Shown here: positions 51,699 through 61,722 of the stretch, one piece after another
Layout: each line of letters starts with the position of its first letter
Numbering within the stretch: the first letter of the stretch is position 1
Virus record (IMG/VR): IMGVR_UViG_3300037467_003067
Location: 160,001 to 224,000 of that record
Length of the DNA: 64,000 nt
Reading direction: 5' to 3' (one strand)
DNA from: a virus
Taxonomy: Duplodnaviria > Caudoviricetes
Translations under genes and position numbers: made by a program
The notes under the pieces: model-generated
The model's database searches: none
Told to the model about the DNA's origin: nothing
What the model saw: the letters and a program-made list of their open reading frames with translations, nothing else

Positions 51699-52300
51699 TG
51701 TCTTATCTCCCCACAGTAAAAAACAGAAAAAACAAAGCCGTTGAGCCGGATCGAAACCAGCAAATTGTTGCAAAGTACACCAGGTCCGACTCGACGGCTA
51801 TAAGGTCATATCCTAAAGCACAATTTGTCAGTGTGTACAGGATCACACGCCATGCCCGAGAACGATATCTCCAGAGATTTTCCAACTTATCGAAATACAA
51901 ACACATTGATTCTTGTCCTCAAAGAGATACCTGCAAGCACTGCCATTCCCTTCGCATCGCCCTCAAGCAACTCGCCGATGACCAAAGGTTCGAGGTCGAC
52001 AAGGAAATTGAACGACGGATCAACCAAGCCAAAGAAGAACGCTCTTATATCAATAATACCGAACTGATGCTTCGCCTCTGGGAAGAGTACGGCTACGATT
52101 CAAGATTCCGGTTCCTGAGAGATCAGGATGCCGTGTTCGTCATCGGTCAGAATGGTCCGATCCAGACTGTTATCACGGTATTACCCATGGGGTCTCCGAT
52201 CGGGAAACAAATCTCTGTTCATGTCAAATTCCGCAAGAAAGACAAAGGACGGCTTCCTCAACCAGAACCCGAAGAAGAAACTTACATTGCCGACAGGTGA
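51698..52300 (+). CDS. Hypothetical protein
   Basis: ITRHARERY..R and TVITV resemble BECR/RelE-like fold motifs (weak). Confidence 0.55.
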   Translation: MSYLPTVKNRKNKAVEPDRNQQIVAKYTRSDSTAIRSYPKAQFVSVYRITRHARERYLQRFSNLSKYKHIDSCPQRDTCKHCHSLRIALKQLADDQRFEVDKEIERRINQAKEERSYINNTELMLRLWEEYGYDSRFRFLRDQDAVFVIGQNGPIQTVITVLPMGSPIGKQISVHVKFRKKDKGRLPQPEPEEETYIADR

Positions 52301-52307
52301 CCCAAAG

Positions 52308-53513
52308 ATGCCAAATACTTCTCTTGACGGGATGATTGCACACCTGACCAAGGGAGCGAGGATCGAGACCAACTACAACGAGTTTCGTGACAAGCTCGCC
52401 GAAGGTCGACCATTGGTCGTGAAGTACGGCATCGATCCCACAGGGGTCGATGTCCATCTGGGTCATACCGTGCCCTTGCGTATTCTCCGGAGATTCCAGG
52501 AAGCCGGTCATCAGGCAACGATCATCATCGGTGACTTCACCGCACAGATCGGAGACCCAAGTGGTCGTAATGAGACCAGACCTCCATTATCTCGTCAGCA
52601 GATCAACGAGAACATGAAGGGCTACCTTTCGCAAATCGGCAAGTTCATCGACATGTCCAAGGTCAGGACGTTCTACAACTCCACCTGGTGTCACCGTATG
52701 CGGTTGGTGGATGTCCTCGCCGAATTCGCGCCCATAACCGCACAAAGAATGCTCGACCGCGACGACTTCTCCAAGCGGCTCAAGGAACAACAGCCCGTCT
52801 ACCTCCATGAATTCATCTATCCTGTGATCCAGGGCATCGACTCAAGAGAAATACACGCTGACGTAGAACTCGGCGGCACGGAACAACTCTATACTCTCTT
52901 GATCGCCAGAGATATCCAGCAACGCGCCGGACAACCTCAACAAACCTGCATCACGGTGCCGATCCTCCGGGGACTCGACGGCAAAAGAAGGATGGGCAAG
53001 TCCCTCAAGAACTATGTCGGGATCAATGACAGTCCTGCCGACGTGTTCGGCAAGACGATGAGCATTCCCGATGAATTGCTTCAGGAATGGTACGATCTCC
53101 TCACTGACCAAACATATAATCCCGAAAAGCACCCGAAAGGACAGAAACTCGCCCTTGCCTCCATCCTCGTCACGCAAATCTATGACAAGGAGACGGCGGC
53201 AAAAGCACAAGAAGATTGGGAGACGCAATTTTCCAAGAAGCAAGATCCCAGCGAGATTACCGAAGTCGTAATCCCGCCGCAGGAAATGTCCATCTGTCAT
53301 CTTTTGGTGGCGAGTCAACTTGCTGCCAGTCTCAGTGAAGCAAGACGTGCCATCATCCCCAACCCAAAGACAGATGGAGATGGTTCCAAGAGTAGCGTGA
53401 CACTCGGTCCCGATCGCACGAAGATCCTTGATCCCAAGACAGTGGTTGCGATCGAGGACAATATGATCCTGCGATTGGGCAAAAGGAAGATTGTCCGCAT
53501 TCGAACCAAGTAA
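52308..53513 (+). CDS. tyrS: Tyrosyl-tRNA synthetase
   Basis: GIDPT..HLGH, GDFTA.IGDPSG, ELGGTEQ, RMGKS, C-terminal S4-like domain. Confidence 0.96.
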   Translation: MPNTSLDGMIAHLTKGARIETNYNEFRDKLAEGRPLVVKYGIDPTGVDVHLGHTVPLRILRRFQEAGHQATIIIGDFTAQIGDPSGRNETRPPLSRQQINENMKGYLSQIGKFIDMSKVRTFYNSTWCHRMRLVDVLAEFAPITAQRMLDRDDFSKRLKEQQPVYLHEFIYPVIQGIDSREIHADVELGGTEQLYTLLIARDIQQRAGQPQQTCITVPILRGLDGKRRMGKSLKNYVGINDSPADVFGKTMSIPDELLQEWYDLLTDQTYNPEKHPKGQKLALASILVTQIYDKETAAKAQEDWETQFSKKQDPSEITEVVIPPQEMSICHLLVASQLAASLSEARRAIIPNPKTDGDGSKSSVTLGPDRTKILDPKTVVAIEDNMILRLGKRKIVRIRTK

Positions 53514-54526: not shown

Positions 54527-54555
54527 TTGTAAAATTGAAGCGACCTTGATATATT
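54527..54555 (+). promoter_or_regulatory. sigma70-type promoter upstream of leader peptide
   Basis: TTGTAA-17 bp-TATATT with extended -10 TG. Confidence 0.65.
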
Positions 54556-54609: not shown

Positions 54610-54687
54610 ATGTTATTGTCGTTGCTTAGTTTGTTTTCCTTTAGCTCGTTGCTTTATAGCAACCTGAGCATCGGAGGCATCTCGTAG
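54610..54687 (+). CDS. Putative attenuator leader peptide MLLSLLSLFSFSSLLYSNLSIGGIS (not in ORF track)
   Basis: AAGGA RBS; 8 Leu, 8 Ser, 2 Phe, 1 Tyr in 25 codons; TAG TAA double stop; terminator 27 nt later. Confidence 0.7.
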   Translation: MLLSLLSLFSFSSLLYSNLSIGGIS

Positions 54688-54714: not shown

Positions 54715-54763
54715 AAAACCCGCCCGCTGAACCGAGAGACACGGTTCAGCGGGCGGGTTTTTT
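54715..54763 (+). terminator. Strong intrinsic terminator (putative attenuator)
   Basis: CCCGCCCGCTGAACCG-agagaca-CGGTTCAGCGGGCGGG + TTTTTT. Confidence 0.88.
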
Positions 54764-54822: not shown

Positions 54823-54996
54823 ATGAAGAAAAAAGTCAACGAAGTCTTGAAACTAAAAAACAAGAAACCCTGGCAGGTGTCCCGAGGGCATCGAGTGGTC
54901 AAACAAACCGGTGGCATCCACGCCGACAAGCGGGTTGACGAGCCAGGCAAAGGCGGAAGAAAACAAGACCAATTCCGCAAGCTCATGGATGACTGA
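54823..54996 (+). CDS. Small basic protein (57 aa)
   Basis: MKKKVNEVLKLKNKKPWQVSRGH...GGIHADKR; GAGG RBS. Confidence 0.65.
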   Translation: MKKKVNEVLKLKNKKPWQVSRGHRVVKQTGGIHADKRVDEPGKGGRKQDQFRKLMDD

Positions 54997-55005
54997 AATA
55001 CAAAT

Positions 55006-55077
55006 GGGACTGAGGTGTAATTAGTAGCATGTTAATCTGAAAAGTTAACGGGTCGAGTGCGATTCTCGGCGGTCCCG
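55006..55077 (+). tRNA. tRNA-Phe(GAA)
   Basis: GGGACTG/CGGTCCC acceptor; TTAAT-CTGAAAA-GTTAA anticodon arm. Confidence 0.8.
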
Positions 55078-55113
55078 CTTCTTTGACAATTTGGCAAATC
55101 TTTAAGCATAATT

Positions 55114-55224
55114 CATTGACGATGCCCCTCGCAACCGGGGGTGCCTCACGTTGATTAAGCCGGATAAAAGCTAGGTTAGAAGCTCGCCGGTCCTAGGAGC
55201 GAGTGAAGGCTATATTCGTCAGTG
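55114..55224 (+). ncRNA. Unidentified structured RNA candidate (~110 nt)
   Basis: Closing stem CATTGACGA/TCGTCAGTG with nested hairpins. Confidence 0.4.
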
Positions 55225-55263
55225 AAAAACAATTTAAACAATAACTTAAATTCAAACTAAGCA

Positions 55264-55515
55264 ATGAAAAAAGTAATTCACGTTAATCAACACAAGATTA
55301 AAAGTAACCGTAAAACAGGTCTTAACGAACCGGTCCTTACCGTCAAGACCTACAAGACTAATGACTACGCTCACGAGGTCTACATCGACGGACCCTGTAA
55401 GATCATCTATCGTCCAAATAAGCCGCTCTCGTGCGGTGCCGAAGTCTGGATCGAGGTAGAGAGCGGGGTTGAAGTGGAGATAACTGATTTTCAGGGAGAG
55501 AATAGAGATGGATAA
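55264..55515 (+). CDS. Small phage hypothetical protein
   Basis: IHVNQHKI...PLSCGA.VWIE. Confidence 0.7.
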   Translation: MKKVIHVNQHKIKSNRKTGLNEPVLTVKTYKTNDYAHEVYIDGPCKIIYRPNKPLSCGAEVWIEVESGVEVEITDFQGENRDG

Positions 55516-55705
55516 CAGCAAAAATGAGGAACCAAAAATAAGGTCGTGGACTAAATTTTTGGATGCCATCTTTCCTTGGAACGGCGGTACTTGTCGGATC
55601 TGCCGCCAAAAATTTAAAACAGACGAACAATGGCATCACGTAGATGGATTGTTTGGCTATCAAATATGGAGATGTAATTGTAAAGGAAGATCGATCAATA
55701 GGTAA
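55508..55705 (+). CDS. Small Cys-containing hypothetical protein
   Basis: CRIC...CNC. Confidence 0.5.
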   Translation: MDNSKNEEPKIRSWTKFLDAIFPWNGGTCRICRQKFKTDEQWHHVDGLFGYQIWRCNCKGRSINR

Positions 55706-55717
55706 ACATTATCAAAC

Positions 55718-55794
55718 GGCAGTGTAGGAGAATTGGCATATCCGCTCAGTTCAGACCTGAGTGCTTTTGTGGGTTTCGAATCCCACCACTGCCA
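55718..55794 (+). tRNA. tRNA-Leu(CAG), short variable arm
   Basis: GGCAGTG/CACTGCC; CTCAG-TTCAGAC-CTGAG. Confidence 0.8.
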
Positions 55795-55800
55795 TCATAT

Positions 55801-55882
55801 GTCCACCTGGGGGAATTAGCAGACCCGTGGTACTCAAAATGCCATGCCGAGAGGCGTACCGGTGCGAGTCCGGTGGTGGATA
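55801..55882 (+). tRNA. tRNA-Leu(CAA)
   Basis: GTCCACC/GGTGGAT; TGGTA-CTCAAAA-TGCCA; long variable arm. Confidence 0.85.
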
Positions 55883-55886
55883 CTGC

Positions 55887-55967
55887 CAGGACGTGGCGTA
55901 AAGGCAGCCGCGCTAGTCTTAGGAACTAGTCCCGTAAGGGGTGAGGGTTCAACTCCCTCCGTCCGTA
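55887..55967 (+). tRNA. tRNA-Leu(TAG), imperfect acceptor stem
   Basis: CTAGT-CTTAGGA-ACTAG; GGTTCAACTCC T arm; only 5 acceptor pairs. Confidence 0.7.
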
Positions 55968-55973
55968 CTACAT

Positions 55974-56055
55974 GACCATCTGGGGGAATTAGCAGACCCA
56001 TGGCACTTAAAATGCCATACCGCAAGGTGTCTCAGTGCAAATCTGAGGATGGTTA
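55974..56055 (+). tRNA. tRNA-Leu(TAA)
   Basis: GACCATC/GATGGTT; TGGCA-CTTAAAA-TGCCA. Confidence 0.85.
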
Positions 56056-56062
56056 CTCGAAT

Positions 56063-56143
56063 GCGTCGGCTGGGCATTGACGAGCCCAAGTGGCTGTAAC
56101 CCACTCGCCTCTGGCTGTGGCGGTTTAACTCCGTCCCGACGCA
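56063..56143 (+). tRNA. tRNA-Tyr(GTA)
   Basis: GCGTCGG/CCGACGC; AGTGG-CTGTAAC-CCACT. Confidence 0.85.
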
Positions 56144-56163
56144 CTTTATTCAGGAGAAGACCA

Positions 56164-56346
56164 ATGGCGAAGAAAAAGATGACGATTCCGGAGCAGATCA
56201 AGCACGAGGAAGCGTACGTGGACTTCCTTCGCAAGCGATTGGATTCCGAGAACTACAAATCCAGTGTAGCTCCGGAAGAGTACCAAAAGACCAAAGAGAA
56301 GTATAACAAGGCGAAGTTTCGACTGAAGACCTTGAAGACTAAGTAA
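56164..56346 (+). CDS. Small basic coiled-coil protein
   Basis: MAKKKMTIPEQ...; AGGAG RBS. Confidence 0.65.
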   Translation: MAKKKMTIPEQIKHEEAYVDFLRKRLDSENYKSSVAPEEYQKTKEKYNKAKFRLKTLKTK

Positions 56347-56359
56347 AACAAATCAATCA

Positions 56360-56444
56360 GACCTTGTGCTGGAACAGGTATACAGCGTCGGCTTAGACCC
56401 GACGGTCCCTAGTAGACATGAGGGTTCGACTCCCTCCAAGGTCA
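56360..56444 (+). tRNA. tRNA-Leu(TAG)
   Basis: GACCTTG/CAAGGTC; GTCGG-CTTAGAC-CCGAC. Confidence 0.88.
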
Positions 56445-56450
56445 TTTTAT

Positions 56451-56534
56451 CGTCCCGTGCTGGAATTGGTATACAGCACCGATTGAGGATCGGTGATCCT
56501 TAGTGATATGAGGGTTCGACTCCCTTCGGGACGA
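56451..56534 (+). tRNA. tRNA-Leu(GAG)
   Basis: CGTCCCG/CGGGACG; ACCGA-TTGAGGA-TCGGT. Confidence 0.88.
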
Positions 56535-56590
56535 CTAAATAATTATTGGATAAAAACCATATAAAAGTTAGGATTCAACTATGTTATTGA

Positions 56591-57328
56591 ATGGCAAACT
56601 CAAATGTAGAATATACTAAAGAACTTCTAGAACCATTAGTCAAAACTAGCTATTCAGTAGCCCAAGTATTACGAAAACTTGGTAAAAGATTAGACGGAGG
56701 CGTTCATTCTCATTTATCTAAAACAATTAAAAACTTAGAATTGGATACATCTCATTTTACGGGACAAAGAAGCAACTGCGGTCCGAATCACAAAGGAGGA
56801 CTTCGCAGAAGAACATGGCAAGAAGTATTAGTTTTAAGGGCTAACGATAGAAGAAAAGAAGACACATACTTATTAAGACGCGCATTAATTGAATTTGGTC
56901 GTGAATATGTTTGTAGTAATGAAAAGTGTAAAATAGCAGGAGAGTGGCTAGGACAAGAAATAACCTTAGAAATTAATCATAAAGACTGTGATTGGTCGAA
57001 CAATAAACCAGAGAACTTAGAGTTTTTGTGTCCTAATTGCCATTCTCAATACCACAAATTTCTGACACAGTCCAAACGCAAGCATAATAGACAGATTAAA
57101 ACCAAATCTAATAAGTCTAATCATTGCGTTGATTGTAACAAAGCAATATATAATAAATCTACTCGATGTAAATCATGTCAAGGTAAAACATCTCCCAATA
57201 AAATTAATTGGCCGCCAACTAATGTTTTAATTGAAATGGTCCAACAAAGTAATTACTTAGCTGTGTCAAGACAGCTAGGAGTATCTGATAACGCAATTCG
57301 TAAGAGAATTAAAAATCACGCCGCTTAG
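56591..57328 (+). mobile_element. HNH homing endonuclease inserted in tRNA array
   Basis: LEINHKD..WSNN..ENL..LCPNCH; C-terminal HTH LGVSDNAIRK; AT-rich. Confidence 0.88.
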
Positions 57329-57340
57329 TGTAGCATAAGT

Positions 57341-57427
57341 GACCTTGTGGTGAAATTGGCGAGACACGGCGGGCTTAAACCCCGTTGCCTGTTAAAGGGC
57401 ATCCCAGTTCGAATCTGGGCAAGGTTA
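57341..57427 (+). tRNA. tRNA-Leu(TAA)
   Basis: GACCTTG/CAAGGTT; GCGGG-CTTAAAC-CCCGT. Confidence 0.85.
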
Positions 57428-57433
57428 TCATTG

Positions 57434-57515
57434 GGAGGGGTGGACACAGGCACGTCAGACCGGTTGCTAACCGGCTCGCCGGAAACGGTTGCAGGTTCAA
57501 ATCCTGTCCCCTCCG
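57434..57515 (+). tRNA. tRNA-Ser(GCT)
   Basis: GGAGGGG/CCCCTCC; CCGG-TTGCTAA-CCGG; G73. Confidence 0.82.
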
Positions 57516-57574
57516 CTCAATCAAAAAATCGAGAAATAAAATGAGTATCTTTTGAGTTGACAAATACATAATGC

Positions 57575-59644
57575 ATGAGCAAAAATTTGATCAACATCAA
57601 TAACGCCTGTATCCCCAATAAGATATTGAGCGACACAATTTACCCCCTACTTAATAACGCTTTGTTGATCGAAGGACCGCAAGGACCATCGGGACCTCAA
57701 GGTGGTGGAGGCTCTTTGGAAATTGGAGGCGATATCATTGGGGGAACGGCATCATCTGTTCTCTTTGTGGGCAATTCTGGAATTCTCAATCAAGACACAT
57801 CAGGACTTGTTTACAACGTTAGCTCCAAGAGATTGGGTGTAGGTGTATCTTCTCCCACGGCAGCTTTACATGCGGCTTGCAGTTCATCATCCAGCAAAGC
57901 CGCTGTTTTTCAAGGTGCATCTGGACAATCTGCCAATATTACTGAAATTCAAAATAGCAATGGAGACATACTTCACAGTTTTGATGGCTCTGGCGTTACG
58001 ACTATCAACCACACTGCCGAGGGCGGCACATCCTACTTCAGTTATATAAATAACGTAAGTGAAAGCGCCGCGACGAGTGTTCCATTTCTTCAATCCTATG
58101 GCGGCACTCCATTTACCAATACTCCGATTGGCGGTGGCGCACCAACCTCTGTCATCGACAATGTTTTTGCACAGGGTTGGGAGCGTGTACCTGGGGAGCT
58201 ACCAGGATATACGGAGAATTGGGAACATTATTGGCACACCCAATACATGACCGAGCGTCATGGCAACTTCACATCTATTGACGGAACTGTCGCTTATCGT
58301 CCATGGTACTGGATTATCAACAATGAAACTTATCGTCTAAACCGAATTGATAGAGGATACATTTATGATTGGTTTGGACGATTAGGTACATTCCCACTTT
58401 TAAGAATCCTCACGAACGACAACGACTCTGGAAGTGTGATCATTCAGAACGACGGGACCGCCCCGCCTCTGCAAGTGACCAGTCCTGGAGGCAATGTTTC
58501 ATTCACTCTCAACCCAGATGGAGCTATCCTTGCCCAATGCGGCATCAATGCAACCTCTGATTCTCCTATCCATAACGGTGTAGGGCTATTCTCAATTGGA
58601 ACCTACTGGACGGGGAGTGCTTCTTCAGGAGCCACGACAGGAATACAAACAATTGTCGCTGGAAATAACGATTTTCATCTGCTGGCTACTTCTGGAAACG
58701 CCAATTACCGCTTCATGAATAATGGCAGAATTGGAGCCAATGTAACAACAGATCGTATAACAGAAAATATTGTTATGTCCCCTGGATATCTAGCCAGCAT
58801 CAATAACGATACTCCCGCTAATGCTACTTATCGTCTAATTGGCTTGAATGCTACAGATCAAGTGGACATTGACACAGATCGACGTGGAGTTGTATTTGGA
58901 ACTGGCATTCAATTTTCTGAGTCTGACTTTGGCAACGGTCGCATTCCCATAGTCACACTCGGCCTAACTGGAACCACAGGATCGCCTAACGGAATTGATG
59001 CAACGATTTCCACTTGGTTCCAAAGAAGGGTGGTTAGTCGAGAAATATGGATTGGAACTGACACCGACACAGGGGCCACACGCATCCAAGGATCGGGAGG
59101 TTTGACAGTAAGCTGTGGGGCTTCGGGTACGAATAATTCGTTATTCCTCTCCACCTCGGCAAATTATACCGTCGCCAATAGTTGCCGCATCCTCTTTGGA
59201 CCCCACTTCGGGTTCTTACCCGCTAACGCGAATTGCCCCTTCATGGAAGGATACAACGACCTTAGCTCAAATGGCGGCGTTGACGGTGGATTGAAGTTTG
59301 GAACCTATTATTCATCAGGCGATGGGCTGGCTGTTCGGCTGAAGATTTCTCCCATTGGATTTATTGGAATTCACGAGACATCTCCCGGTGGTCAACTCCA
59401 TGTTACCACCAGTTCCGCAACCACCATCGGAACGATTACCAGAGCCGCCCCGTCACAGACTGCAAATCTCTCCGAGTGGCAGGACAATAATGGCAATCCT
59501 TTATCTTCCATCAAGTTTAACGGGAGCTATGCGCCACCATCACTAGCCGACTCCGCAGCCGCAAACAATTCAATATATTACAGCACTACTCAATCGAAAC
59601 TATGCTACAAAGATCCAGGAGGAGTATCTAATCCACTTTACTAA
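57575..59644 (+). CDS. Tail fibre/adhesin-like protein
   Basis: GPQGPSGPQG collagen-like stretch; repeated G(V/I)G...P...LH and QSANITE/QTANLSE fibre motifs; Gly/Ser/Thr-rich. Confidence 0.7.
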   Translation: MSKNLININNACIPNKILSDTIYPLLNNALLIEGPQGPSGPQGGGGSLEIGGDIIGGTASSVLFVGNSGILNQDTSGLVYNVSSKRLGVGVSSPTAALHAACSSSSSKAAVFQGASGQSANITEIQNSNGDILHSFDGSGVTTINHTAEGGTSYFSYINNVSESAATSVPFLQSYGGTPFTNTPIGGGAPTSVIDNVFAQGWERVPGELPGYTENWEHYWHTQYMTERHGNFTSIDGTVAYRPWYWIINNETYRLNRIDRGYIYDWFGRLGTFPLLRILTNDNDSGSVIIQNDGTAPPLQVTSPGGNVSFTLNPDGAILAQCGINATSDSPIHNGVGLFSIGTYWTGSASSGATTGIQTIVAGNNDFHLLATSGNANYRFMNNGRIGANVTTDRITENIVMSPGYLASINNDTPANATYRLIGLNATDQVDIDTDRRGVVFGTGIQFSESDFGNGRIPIVTLGLTGTTGSPNGIDATISTWFQRRVVSREIWIGTDTDTGATRIQGSGGLTVSCGASGTNNSLFLSTSANYTVANSCRILFGPHFGFLPANANCPFMEGYNDLSSNGGVDGGLKFGTYYSSGDGLAVRLKISPIGFIGIHETSPGGQLHVTTSSATTIGTITRAAPSQTANLSEWQDNNGNPLSSIKFNGSYAPPSLADSAAANNSIYYSTTQSKLCYKDPGGVSNPLY

Positions 59645-59772
59645 TGTATTCGTGAGTTTTTTCGTCATATCGCAGAGGTTGGATCGTTCTCGTGTGCGGG
59701 GCTGTATGCGTGCGATCCGAAACCGGTGATCGAGGTGGTCATGGAAGTGACCAAGCAGGAGTTTGAAAAGCT

Positions 59773-59804
59773 GCGAAGCCCACGGGACATTCCGTGGGCT
59801 TCGC
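59773..59804. terminator. Hairpin between convergent genes
   Basis: GCGAAGCCCACGG...CCGTGGGCTTCGC. Confidence 0.6.
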
Positions 59805-59807
59805 TAG

Positions 59808-60275
59808 TCACTCGCCACCAGCGACAAATCTACCGCGTCGAACCATTGGACCAACGCTCGACCTGTCAGGTGCGAAGGCTAGTTGATTGTAGTTTGCACC
59901 GGGACCGCTGTGTCGTGAGAAGTGCGGAAATTCGGATGGCAATCCATTGTCGCCGTAATCGGACGGGACATGACCGGCATGAGGACCACGGCCCATTGAC
60001 GCAGCCTTGATTGGATTGGACGGCATCTCGGTTCCGTACTTCTTGTCCATGATCATGTCGATGATACGATATCGCAGTTTCTTTTCCTCTTGATCATCGT
60101 TGACCGTGTGGAGCTTATTCCAGAATTTGGCAGCCAGTGGTTTGGGGAGCATGTCGAGAAGTTGGTCGGTGTCGAGGTAGTGGAGATACGCCCAATGATT
60201 GGCGTAGTCGCTGTTGTTTTCTCGCATCGCCATATCATACTTCATTTGCTCATAGAATTGATAGAAAGATTGCAT
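59808..60275 (-). CDS. Hypothetical protein with capsid-targeting-like N-terminus
   Basis: Starts MQSFYQFYEQ; AGGA RBS. Confidence 0.65.
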   Translation of the reverse strand: MQSFYQFYEQMKYDMAMRENNSDYANHWAYLHYLDTDQLLDMLPKPLAAKFWNKLHTVNDDQEEKKLRYRIIDMIMDKKYGTEMPSNPIKAASMGRGPHAGHVPSDYGDNGLPSEFPHFSRHSGPGANYNQLAFAPDRSSVGPMVRRGRFVAGGE

Positions 60276-60339
60276 GAATTGGTTTCCTAAAGAGACTAGG
60301 TGATATTTTATATAGATTGGTATAATTATTTAATATATT

Positions 60340-60421
60340 GGTAGTGATCCGAAGTTGGCGAGGACACCCGCTTGAACCGGGCTGCCCGAAAGGGTTGAGA
60401 GGTCGGCACTCTCCGCTACCG
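60340..60421 (+). tRNA. tRNA-Ser(TGA), atypical T loop
   Basis: GGTAGTG/CGCTACC; CCCG-CTTGAAC-CGGG; long variable arm; T loop lacks TTC. Confidence 0.7.
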
Positions 60422-60445
60422 CTCTTATTTAGAAAGGACAAGATT

Positions 60446-60736
60446 ATGGCGGGCTATATTGCGTGCTATGAACACAGCGACAACGCGACTAAGAACAAGG
60501 CGGCGGCGATGGTCAAGGTGACATGCCAGACCGATTTCGCTGCTAAAACTGAGGAGTTCGTCAGTTTTTGTCAGCGGATTGCCAAGCTGGCGTGTGGGTT
60601 CCAGATCGAGGACACCAAGGCGTTCCTCGAAATCATCGAAAACGATTTCGAGGATCTTGCTGCTGATCTTGATGCTTTAAGAACTGACCTCAAAGAAAAC
60701 ATTGAAATTGCCGCAATCCGGGTCATGAAACTTTGA
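60446..60736 (+). CDS. Truncated elongation factor Ts-like protein
   Basis: GYIACYEH...MVKVTCQTDFAAKTEEF...LKENIEI matches the EF-Ts core (TDFV) subdomain; 96 aa. Confidence 0.75.
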   Translation: MAGYIACYEHSDNATKNKAAAMVKVTCQTDFAAKTEEFVSFCQRIAKLACGFQIEDTKAFLEIIENDFEDLAADLDALRTDLKENIEIAAIRVMKL

Positions 60737-60744
60737 AATTAATC

Positions 60745-60772
60745 TTGTAGCACATATCGATATGTGCTACAA
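60745..60772. repeat. Perfect loop-less 28-bp palindrome
   Basis: TTGTAGCACATATC|GATATGTGCTACAA. Confidence 0.85.
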
Positions 60773-60789
60773 TAATCAAATACAAAATT

Positions 60790-60885
60790 TCAACTCCGGA
60801 AGAAGCTGCTGAGGTATATGATAAAGCAGCACTGGAGAGATGGGGAGATAAAGCAGTGACTAATAAGTCCTTAGGGCTTTTATAA
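60790..60885 (+). pseudogene. AP2 DNA-binding domain remnant
   Basis: STPEEAAEVYDKAALERWGDKAVTN*; no in-frame ATG back to TAG at 60748. Confidence 0.65.
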
Positions 60886-60904
60886 TTTGCTGAATTAAAA
60901 TCAT

Positions 60905-60991
60905 AGTAGGAAGGCGAATGTTGGTTTGTCGCGACTAGTTGGAAGCTAGTTCCAGGTAACACTGGCAGCGGTTCAATTCCGCTTCCTACTG
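60905..60991 (+). tRNA. tRNA-Ser(GGA)
   Basis: AGTAGGA/TCCTACT; ACTAG-TTGGAAG-CTAGT; G73. Confidence 0.82.
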
Positions 60992-60995
60992 CTAA

Positions 60996-61088
60996 ACCCG
61001 ATAGGCGAATCGTTGGATAGTCGCGCCCAATTAACCCTTGGGTCCGTCTGAAATTACGGCGGGGCATGTTCGACTCATGTATCGGGTG
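60996..61088 (+). tRNA. Atypical tRNA: Ser-type body with AAC (Val) anticodon
   Basis: ACCCGAT/ATCGGGT acceptor; CCCAA-TTAACCC-TTGGG; long variable arm; TTCGACT T loop; G73. Confidence 0.65.
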
Positions 61089-61092
61089 TTAT

Positions 61093-61179
61093 GGGGGATA
61101 GGTGGATGTTGGTTTGCCTCACTTATTTCGAAAATAAGACCGTCTAATCGCGGCGCAAGTTCGATTCTTGTGTCCTCCG
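61093..61179 (+). tRNA. tRNA-Ser(CGA)
   Basis: GGGGGAT/GTCCTCC; CTTAT-TTCGAAA-ATAAG; G73. Confidence 0.8.
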
Positions 61180-61218
61180 CTTAAAGATTTGCCCTAGGAC
61201 ATGGAGGTCCTTAAATAA

Positions 61219-61722
61219 ATGATTAGAATTGCCGGACATGAATTCGCCCTCGAACTCGTCAAGCACGAGTTTCTGAGTGCGCTCATCCTCAACGACCCTG
61301 GCGACGTCTATAGAACGGTGCGACAGATACGAAGTATCGCCAGAGGCTCTCTCTATCTGGAGTTCTTCGACTTAAGCGAGGAACGCAAGACTCACCGAGG
61401 TCCCATCGCTGAGGATGTGGTCCATGCGATCGAGTGGTACAAGAAGATTCAGCGTGCGACCTGGAATGATGTCGTTGTGACCTGTACAGCAGGAATTTCC
61501 CGTAGTGCTGCGATGGCGTTTGTGTTAGAATGTGTGGACAAGACGCCGCAGGAAGCATCTCAAGTCTGGAATCCCCGTCTTCACTATCCCAACAAATTGA
61601 TTGTCCGTTTAGGTGCTGAAATTCTCAGCAAGCCGGACATGATCAAGGTCTGTGATGAGTTCTGGGATGAGCGGCTTCGGAGGCGGGCATCGAAGGGGAA
61701 ACCTGCCAAGGTCGATGTTTGA
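61219..61722 (+). CDS. Cys-based phosphatase (PTP/DSP-like)
   Basis: CTAGISRSAA (CX5R), FFD, YPN. Confidence 0.8.
   Translation: MIRIAGHEFALELVKHEFLSALILNDPGDVYRTVRQIRSIARGSLYLEFFDLSEERKTHRGPIAEDVVHAIEWYKKIQRATWNDVVVTCTAGISRSAAMAFVLECVDKTPQEASQVWNPRLHYPNKLIVRLGAEILSKPDMIKVCDEFWDERLRRRASKGKPAKVDV

Follow-up and report, generated by a model that had tools for sequence, protein, structure and literature searches.

A leader-preceded array of leucine, serine, tyrosine and phenylalanine tRNA genes as a candidate demand-sensed part of a divided huge-phage tRNA complement

The window analysed here comprises 64,000 nucleotides, positions 160001-224000 of the IMG/VR virus record IMGVR_UViG_3300037467_003067 (Caudoviricetes; 298,603 bp, 49% GC, 59% complete according to CheckV; referred to as G000). 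It carries an array of 13 tRNA genes, all on the + strand at 55006-61180 of the window, which consists of seven Leu, three Ser, one Tyr and one Phe gene together with one Ser-shaped oddity. We lean towards reading this block as a demand-sensed Leu/Ser/Tyr/Phe operon that belongs to a huge-phage tRNA complement split into separate arrays. Under this reading the leader that precedes the array would act as a multivalent attenuator of the trp/his/leu/ilv type: when charged Leu, Ser, Phe and Tyr tRNAs are scarce, ribosomes would slow on the leader codons, the terminator would be bypassed and the tRNA genes would be transcribed, so that tRNA supply would follow demand. The restricted composition of the array would then reflect operon membership and not a phage need for only these tRNAs, and the array itself would turn over by local duplication, by anticodon switching among Leu or Ser genes and by insertions, among them an HNH endonuclease gene and a tail-fibre-like gene.

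tRNA genes were called with ARAGORN on the window, on the whole record and with relaxed thresholds, and the window and the whole record yielded the same set. The initial annotation had counted 14 genes, four of them Ser; its seven Leu, one Tyr, one Phe and one Ser-bodied oddity were recovered, but only three Ser genes were found and no Ser-UGA. Lowered ARAGORN thresholds added only low-scoring overlaps on either strand, and no 14th gene was found with Rfam at E≤1. None of the 13 genes encodes CCA, as had been noted before; a CCA-adding-enzyme homologue is encoded elsewhere in the record. If Leu, Ser, Tyr and Phe genes make up 27% of a full set, as they do in the relative G002 described below, the probability of finding 13 of 13 genes in this group is ~4e-8, and the restriction of the array is far beyond chance.

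Upstream of the array lies a leader open reading frame (ORF) of 25 codons (54610-54687, + strand), in which the first 16 codons after the start all specify Leu, Ser, Phe or Tyr (L/S/F/Y; 19/24 in total). Between this ORF and the tRNA genes an intrinsic terminator was predicted (54715-54761, + strand), with a 20-bp stem containing 13 GC pairs, a T-run and a ΔG of about -36 kcal/mol. A promoter-like site with a TG-extended -10 region precedes the leader (54527-54555, + strand; 9/12 matches in a consensus scan only). When every short ORF with a terminator behind it was scanned in the 298.6-kb record, no other leader of this kind was found (p 4e-11). The same arrangement, a leader and a strong terminator directly upstream of the array, was present in all seven of the seven phages compared (G000 and the six relatives introduced below), with L/S/F/Y runs of 10-16 codons; in G002, G004 and G010 no more than 65-74 nt separate the leader stop codon from the first tRNA. 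Across phages the leader peptides diverge in sequence and keep their composition. For each of the seven arrays the leader contains at least one codon that probes each distinct anticodon, and in G000 there are 10 such anticodons. The diversity of leader codons was also considered as a sign of designed sampling and set aside, since 14-19 positions filled at random from 16 codons would be expected to hold about as many distinct codons as the 10-13 observed. Covariation of Phe between leader and array was not clean either: the LR756511.1 array lacks Phe and its leader still has one Phe codon. Judged from sequence, the leader and terminator display two defining features of attenuators, a regulatory codon run and an intrinsic terminator ahead of the putatively regulated genes, and the direction of regulation proposed above would be that of the classical attenuator model.

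Relatives were found with a 19-nt word common to two Leu genes, which led to G001 in IMG/VR, and then by alignment of a nearby SbcC-like protein, which gave 26 loci and the GenBank record LR756511.1 (595 kb). Searches of IMG/VR with the 689-aa ORF located within the array and with the tyrosyl-tRNA synthetase (TyrRS) encoded upstream of it found no relatives. Proteins common to G000 and its relatives are 36-49% identical, and gene order differs. In six related huge phages, the array was located near sbcCD in every relative covering that region, with 13 genes in G001, 15 in G002, 16 in G003, 11 in G004, five in G010, where the array is cut by the contig end, and 12 in LR756511.1 (six Leu, four Ser, two Tyr, no Phe). 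Over the seven phages, 84 of the 85 array genes are Leu, Ser, Tyr or Phe. In this clade of 400-600-kb phages every Leu, Ser and Tyr tRNA gene belongs to a single array near sbcCD, and in the subclade of G000 Phe is in the array as well. Since gene order and copy number differ among the arrays, composition rather than arrangement is what has been conserved; the earlier view of the composition as non-random and selected is borne out by its retention in six relatives whose proteins are only ~40% identical. Two further observations concern odd genes in these relatives. Class II-shaped 90-nt tRNAs with anticodon UAU and A73 occur in both G002 (L049 3406-3495) and G003 (L043 18860-18949), and G002 has a 97-nt tRNA-like gene (L049 3778-3874) whose loop contains UUAAC, five bases of the loop UUAACCC of the G000 oddity.

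Huge phages carry large tRNA complements (up to ~60-70 tRNAs) with aminoacyl-tRNA synthetases (aaRS) and translation factors, and in two relatives the rest of such a complement was found. In G002 (436 kb, 85% complete) the Rfam model matched 62 tRNAs. About 42 of these lie at 165-196 kb, where Leu, Ser and Tyr genes and any normal Phe gene are absent; this set comprises Met, Asn, Lys, Ile, His, Gln, Arg, Cys, Gly, Pro, Asp, Thr, Glu, Val and Ala genes and a tRNA with anticodon UCA. LR756511.1 has 60 Rfam tRNA matches, with ~47, nearly all class I and including both Phe genes, at 233-291 kb. In both genomes these other arrays share the strand of the Leu/Ser/Tyr(/Phe) array (array 1) and lie 136-194 kb downstream of it. 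Contig ends fall 77, 56, 108 and 45 kb downstream of array 1 in G000, G001, G003 and G004, all short of +136 kb, and the last 8 kb of G000 match G002 at ~90-94 kb. None of these contigs extends to where the other arrays begin in the two relatives, and the evidence from the clade favours one part of a partitioned full set over the array being the whole tRNA repertoire of the phage. The class I genes of G002 have leaders of their own: 16 of 19 residues of one are Asn, Lys, Ile, His, Gln, Arg or Cys, and it stands ahead of Asn, Lys, Ile, His, Gln, Arg and Cys genes, while 23 of 25 residues of the other are Met, Pro, Gly, Asp, Thr, Glu, Val or Ala, ahead of genes for those eight amino acids. A terminator is present at both (p ~1.5e-6 each among ~ten candidate ORFs).

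The complement of these relatives also holds unusual members. Two G002 tRNAs with anticodons UCA (L048 8390-8460) and CUA (L049 16243-16320, - strand) could read UGA and UAG, and G002 may recode stop codons; ORFs of G000 end in TAA (106), TGA (101) and TAG (16), with no sign of recoding. Further odd tRNA-like genes were called in G002 (L048 12521-12601, L052 5840-5927) and LR756511.1 (L056 28614-28689, 28999-29073), the types among them being 'Phe-AAA' genes of 81 and 88 nt, a four-base 'GAAA' anticodon call and a 75-nt 'Ser-CGA' outside array 1.

These findings bear on how the composition of the array is to be interpreted. The initial annotation had proceeded from the composition to a set that counters a class-specific host tRNase, a step left unsupported by G002 and LR756511.1, which supply all other tRNAs from separate arrays. 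An unbiased, complete tRNA set elsewhere in the genome, which had been named, together with equal cleavage of phage and host tRNAs, as what would speak against that proposal, exists at the level of the clade in these two phages; G000 itself is only ~59% complete. The composition by itself is no evidence of a weapon against a host tRNA-cutting enzyme, and the anti-tRNase idea is no longer needed for explaining the array. Reading of UNN codons, the class modified by MiaA, had also been suggested as the sorting rule and was rejected: the array includes CUN-Leu and AGY-Ser genes, and the Cys and UCA/Trp-type genes belong to the other arrays.

Several observations weigh against a demand-sensed operon of a partitioned complement. 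The class I tRNA genes of LR756511.1 are mixed and dispersed, and none of the candidate matching leaders at its class I arrays was convincing, which leaves the class II operon as the only conserved leader-gated unit and a special role of class II unaccounted for. Same-anticodon duplicates within one phage are only 57-85% identical; such copies are old and divergent, which would be unexpected under simple dosage. Elsewhere in the 298.6-kb record ARAGORN called only Val-GAC, a short Leu-UAA and Cys-GCA. When the leader region was folded without the 3′ arm of the terminator, some members formed short GGG/CCC pairings to the beginning of the terminator arm and nothing longer, and the members shared no antiterminator geometry. 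Finally, in G000 the terminator is separated from tRNA-Phe by a 57-aa ORF and promoter-like sites, and a 3.4-kb insertion sets the last three tRNA genes apart from the others, so not all 13 genes need be under leader control.

The tRNA bodies were examined gene by gene. tRNA-Phe(GAA) (55006-55078; Rfam 45.9 bits), a class I tRNA of 73 nt with loop CUGAAAA, comes first and is followed by tRNA-Leu(CAG) (55718-55794; 45.4 bits), which is 77 nt long with a short variable region of ~7 nt, A37-C38 and A73. tRNA-Leu(CAA) (55801-55883), not reported by Rfam at E≤1, has G1-U72, the T-loop UGCGAGU (G55) and a D-loop without GG, and is a paralogue (77% identical) of the first tRNA-Leu(UAA) (55974-56056), which shares the unusual elbow and has as its nearest relative the Leu-UAG of G001 (77% identity). 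Between these two lies the first tRNA-Leu(UAG) (55887-55968; G37), whose top two acceptor pairs are mismatched (C1/U72, A2/G71) and whose Rfam alignment (38 bits) covers only model positions 3-68. tRNA-Tyr(GUA) (56063-56144) is class II, has A37-C38 and the T-loop UUUAACU, and was not found by Rfam at E≤1. It is followed by the second tRNA-Leu(UAG) (56360-56444; 46.5 bits; A37-C38), 66% identical to the first copy, by tRNA-Leu(GAG) (56451-56535; 45.1 bits; G37) and by the second tRNA-Leu(UAA) (57341-57429; 49.2 bits), which has a long arm, A37-C38 and G1-U72 and is 63% identical to the first. The three Ser genes, all with G73, are tRNA-Ser(GCU) (57434-57516), matched in Rfam only by the tRNA-Sec model below threshold, tRNA-Ser(GGA) (60905-60992), with A37-G38 and no match at E≤1, and tRNA-Ser(CGA) (61093-61180; 25.3 bits, below the gathering score). 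The Ser-shaped oddity (60996-61088), called Val-AAC by ARAGORN, has intact stems, a long arm, G73 and the anticodon loop UUAACCC.

All 13 genes were accepted by ARAGORN; with the Rfam tRNA model (RF00005) eight of the 13 were found at E≤1 and only six reached the gathering score, which marks several array tRNAs as deviant. The five that Rfam did not report have intact stems, with compensatory changes relative to paralogues and orthologues, and unusual elbows. In Leu-CAA, Leu-UAA and the G001 Leu-UAG the stems vary compensatorily and the unusual D-arm and T-loop are constant, with a T-loop UGCRARU (G55) and a D-loop lacking GG; the Tyr gene has U56 in its T-loop and GA in place of the usual GG in its D-loop. 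These elbow deviations suggest compensated changes in the 18-55 and 19-56 tertiary pairs. A long variable arm, the mark of class II, is present in 11 of the 13 genes, so that the restriction to class II proposed earlier holds for these but not for Phe and Leu-CAG. Leu genes without a long arm (74-77 nt) also occur in relatives, and were counted in four phages overall (G000, G001, G002 with four and G010 with two). As Phe, Leu-CAG and the short Leu genes of the relatives lack the long arm, the array is sorted by amino acid and not strictly by shape.

Identity elements agree with this assignment: A73 is present in all seven Leu genes and in Tyr, whose anticodon is GUA, and G73 in all three Ser genes and the oddity, and by sequence the array tRNAs would satisfy the bacterial Leu, Ser and Tyr identity sets. 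Anticodon switching is tolerated by LeuRS and SerRS, as neither enzyme reads the anticodon. Several Leu genes have closest relatives with different Leu anticodons, and such relationships fit switching of this kind. Unusual bases at positions 37-38 had been reported as AC, GA and AG; A37-C38 is indeed found in four genes and A37-G38 in Ser-GGA, but 'GA' (G37) is the bacterial norm for CUN-reading Leu tRNAs, in which G37 is the site of m1G37 formation by TrmD. The unusual feature in G000 is instead A37 in the other two CUN-Leu genes, and clade-wide A37 replaces the bacterial G37 in 16 of 23 such genes. Tyr and Leu genes with C38 also turn up repeatedly in the clade. The oddity has no close relative in the other arrays (≤62% identity), occupies the place of Ser-UGA in relatives, Ser-UGA being the sole Ser isoacceptor missing from the G000 array, and is unlikely to decode normally since it has a pyrimidine at position 37.

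These deviant bodies are the domain of an alternative that we consider unlikely, namely counter-defence. Host effectors that read the long variable arm or other class II features would deplete Leu, Ser and Tyr tRNAs, and the leader would sense the resulting stalls and induce versions that are poor substrates. In a more specific form, which is a shade more doubtful, the leader would be a damage sensor and the operon an inducible countermeasure against PtuAB/Septu-like nucleases or MenT/AbiEii-like nucleotidyltransferases reading the long arm, with short-arm Leu genes, A37 CUN-Leu genes, altered elbows and divergent duplicates as escape forms. Only the class II operon and its leader are conserved as a unit across the clade, class I being organised differently in G002 and LR756511.1, and each phage keeps the old, divergent copies of the same isoacceptor described above. 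The recurrence of Leu tRNAs without a long arm in G000, G001, G002 and G010, the prevalence of A37 in CUN-Leu genes, the recurrent C38 variants, the altered elbow pairs of several G000 tRNAs and the HNH genes within these arrays would likewise suit counter-defence. A stall sensor would also respond to nuclease damage; the conserved L/S/F/Y leader and terminator point to demand-sensed expression and fit nuclease attack and plain supply control equally well.

We know of no nuclease with Leu, Ser and Tyr (and Phe) specificity, and the defence tRNases characterised so far have other target sets. Bacterial Schlafen, considered as a candidate class II tRNase and rejected, targets Lys, Met and Ala tRNAs (PMC13056530), and OLD targets Thr, Gly, fMet, Val and Pro tRNAs (10.64898/2026.07.10.737580). 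Effectors directed at the variable arm do exist (PMC13096335, PMC11162799, PMC11541572), and MenT3 markedly prefers tRNA-Ser (PMC11541572; also PMC11162799). Against counter-defence stands also the presence of class I Phe in both array and leader in the subclade of G000. Since relatives carry full sets and G002 gates class I operons in the same manner, the leader-gated design needs no class-specific enemy.

It is improbable that the phage carries only the Leu/Ser/Tyr/Phe set and stray Val, Leu and Cys genes after losing its other arrays, and that the set fills a host-specific shortage. Four contigs of 225-299 kb do have array 1 and no class I array, but all four stop before the class I array position of G002 and LR756511.1, and their CheckV completeness is 44-59%. 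The stray genes include a short-arm Leu-UAA of 77 nt (107668-107744 of the record, - strand, outside the window) and Cys-GCA (108313-108386, - strand), an isolated pair ~107 kb upstream of the array. This pair lies in a stretch of G000 (103-118 kb) that also holds weak homologues of two genes located within the class I array region of G002, and this stretch could be the remnant of a class I array; synteny is, however, too patchy for a deletion to be called. Another reading, which is quite improbable, is that the phage itself destroys host class II tRNAs and replaces them from the operon, with the leader timing the switch. T-even phages cleave a host tRNA-Leu, and the leader-gated design and deviant tRNA bodies, the only features in its favour, would permit discrimination between self and host; no candidate phage nuclease is linked to the array, however, and the only conserved in-array protein is the HNH endonuclease.

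Codon usage offers no better account. Leu, Ser, Phe and Tyr make up 22.8% of codons in 223 long G000 ORFs, usage is even for all amino acids, and the array tRNAs do not match over-used phage codons. Because usage is even and does not follow tRNA gene copy number, and the Leu-UAA and Leu-UAG genes, each present twice, serve the rarest Leu codons, TTA (8% of Leu) and CTA (6%), codon demand of the phage itself fails to explain the set, and the earlier dismissal of codon bias stands. Compensation for codons common in the phage and rare in the host is hardly credible, for although a phage of 49% GC may infect a GC-richer host, nothing singles out the L/S/F/Y codons, the duplicated genes serve the rarest ones and the partition follows amino acid and not codon rarity.

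Several protein genes lie in and around the array, and those apart from the HNH gene that are located within it are not conserved among relatives. A gene for a bacterial-type TyrRS (52128-53513, + strand; Pfam PF00579, E 4e-65; TIGR00234 tyrS equivalog, 300 bits against a cut-off of 114) lies 1.5 kb upstream. No TyrRS homologue was found in four relatives, so its adjacency to the array is specific to G000, and relatives carry other aaRS genes. Neither LeuRS nor SerRS was found in G000, which ruled out a phage-encoded LeuRS or SerRS as a partner of the array. The 57-aa ORF between the terminator and the first tRNA (54823-54996, + strand) is basic and has no PHROG match. The HNH homing-endonuclease-like gene (56591-57328, + strand) gave weak Pfam HNH and HNH_3 matches and two G001 genes, located within that phage's array or at its start, are homologous to it (35% and 48% identity); the G000 array is thus predicted to contain a free-standing, SegB-like homing endonuclease gene among its tRNAs. 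The insertion that splits the array includes a 689-aa Gly/Ser/Thr-rich tail-fibre-like gene (57575-59644, + strand) with no Pfam or PHROG match. Phage tail or fibre proteins make up its closest ESM Atlas clusters, none of which reaches 0.9, and these count as leads only; a role of this ORF as a tRNA enzyme or nuclease was rejected. A 132-aa, fragment-like EF-Ts homologue follows (60338-60736, + strand; Pfam EF_TS, E 5e-10; TIGR00116, 36 bits, below the cut-off).

Some further features of the surroundings were observed. Just past the array a 167-aa ORF (61219-61722) has weak phosphatase-like matches (Pfam DSPc, dual-specificity/tyrosine, E 1e-3; phrog_5614) and could encode an RNA or protein phosphatase, and directly after the G001 array (contig positions 199962-200231) there is a 196-aa ORF resembling a class II aaRS core. 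Between tRNA-Phe and an 83-aa phrog_8676 gene, at 55083-55235, there is a near-consensus promoter-like site (TTGACA, 18-nt spacer, CATAAT). The 123 nt after it contain no ORF and fold with a 10-bp closing stem (-42 kcal/mol, z -2.6; 2/200 shuffles as good); this stretch may be a small structured RNA.

The usual explanations of phage tRNA genes are codon compensation or, lately, decoys and replacements against tRNA-cutting defences. The present arrays show a third organising principle, in which amino-acid sets divide the complement and the Leu/Ser/Tyr(/Phe) genes stand behind a leader spelled in the same amino acids, with a three-part leader-gated layout in at least one phage (G002). If the attenuator works as proposed, decoding itself would feed back on tRNA supply, a use of attenuation that was not found described; the literature likewise yielded no published attenuation of tRNA genes, leader-gated tRNA operons or class II-only phage arrays. 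The promoter-like site, leader and terminator together form a compact test system of ~250 nt. Two wider points follow. The tRNA content of incomplete phage contigs is readily misread as a restricted set, and class II as a conserved separate unit links these phages to recent work on defence nucleases directed at the variable arm.

Compared with known systems, these phages resemble other huge phages in having a near-complete tRNA set plus genes for aaRS, an EF-Ts-like protein and a CCA-adding enzyme, whereas a strict partition of Leu/Ser/Tyr(/Phe) from the rest with matching leaders was not found in the searched literature. The anti-defence tRNA regions of T5/T6-like phages also consist of a tRNA cluster with embedded homing endonuclease genes and deviant bodies or loops (PMC13096335, PMC11555353, PMC11464382, PMC10264068). 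These phages use tRNA-Tyr against retron-Eco7/Septu PtuAB and tRNA-Lys against PARIS and PrrC (same sources); class II tRNA-Tyr is there a known target via its variable loop, and a class II Tyr gene is also in the G000 array. The T5/T6-like cases, however, set single isoacceptors against a known nuclease, whereas here a whole amino-acid set is assembled and the other tRNAs are found elsewhere in relatives. The enterobacterial leader-peptide attenuators (trpL, hisL, leuL, pheL, ilvL, thrL) are closer in layout, with a short ORF rich in the regulated codons followed by a strong terminator, and those of ilv and thr sense several amino acids together, as the phage leader would. The likeness is limited in that no antiterminator geometry common to the phages was found. 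The enterobacterial attenuators control biosynthetic enzymes, whereas the phage leader precedes tRNA genes and would regulate the supply of tRNAs.

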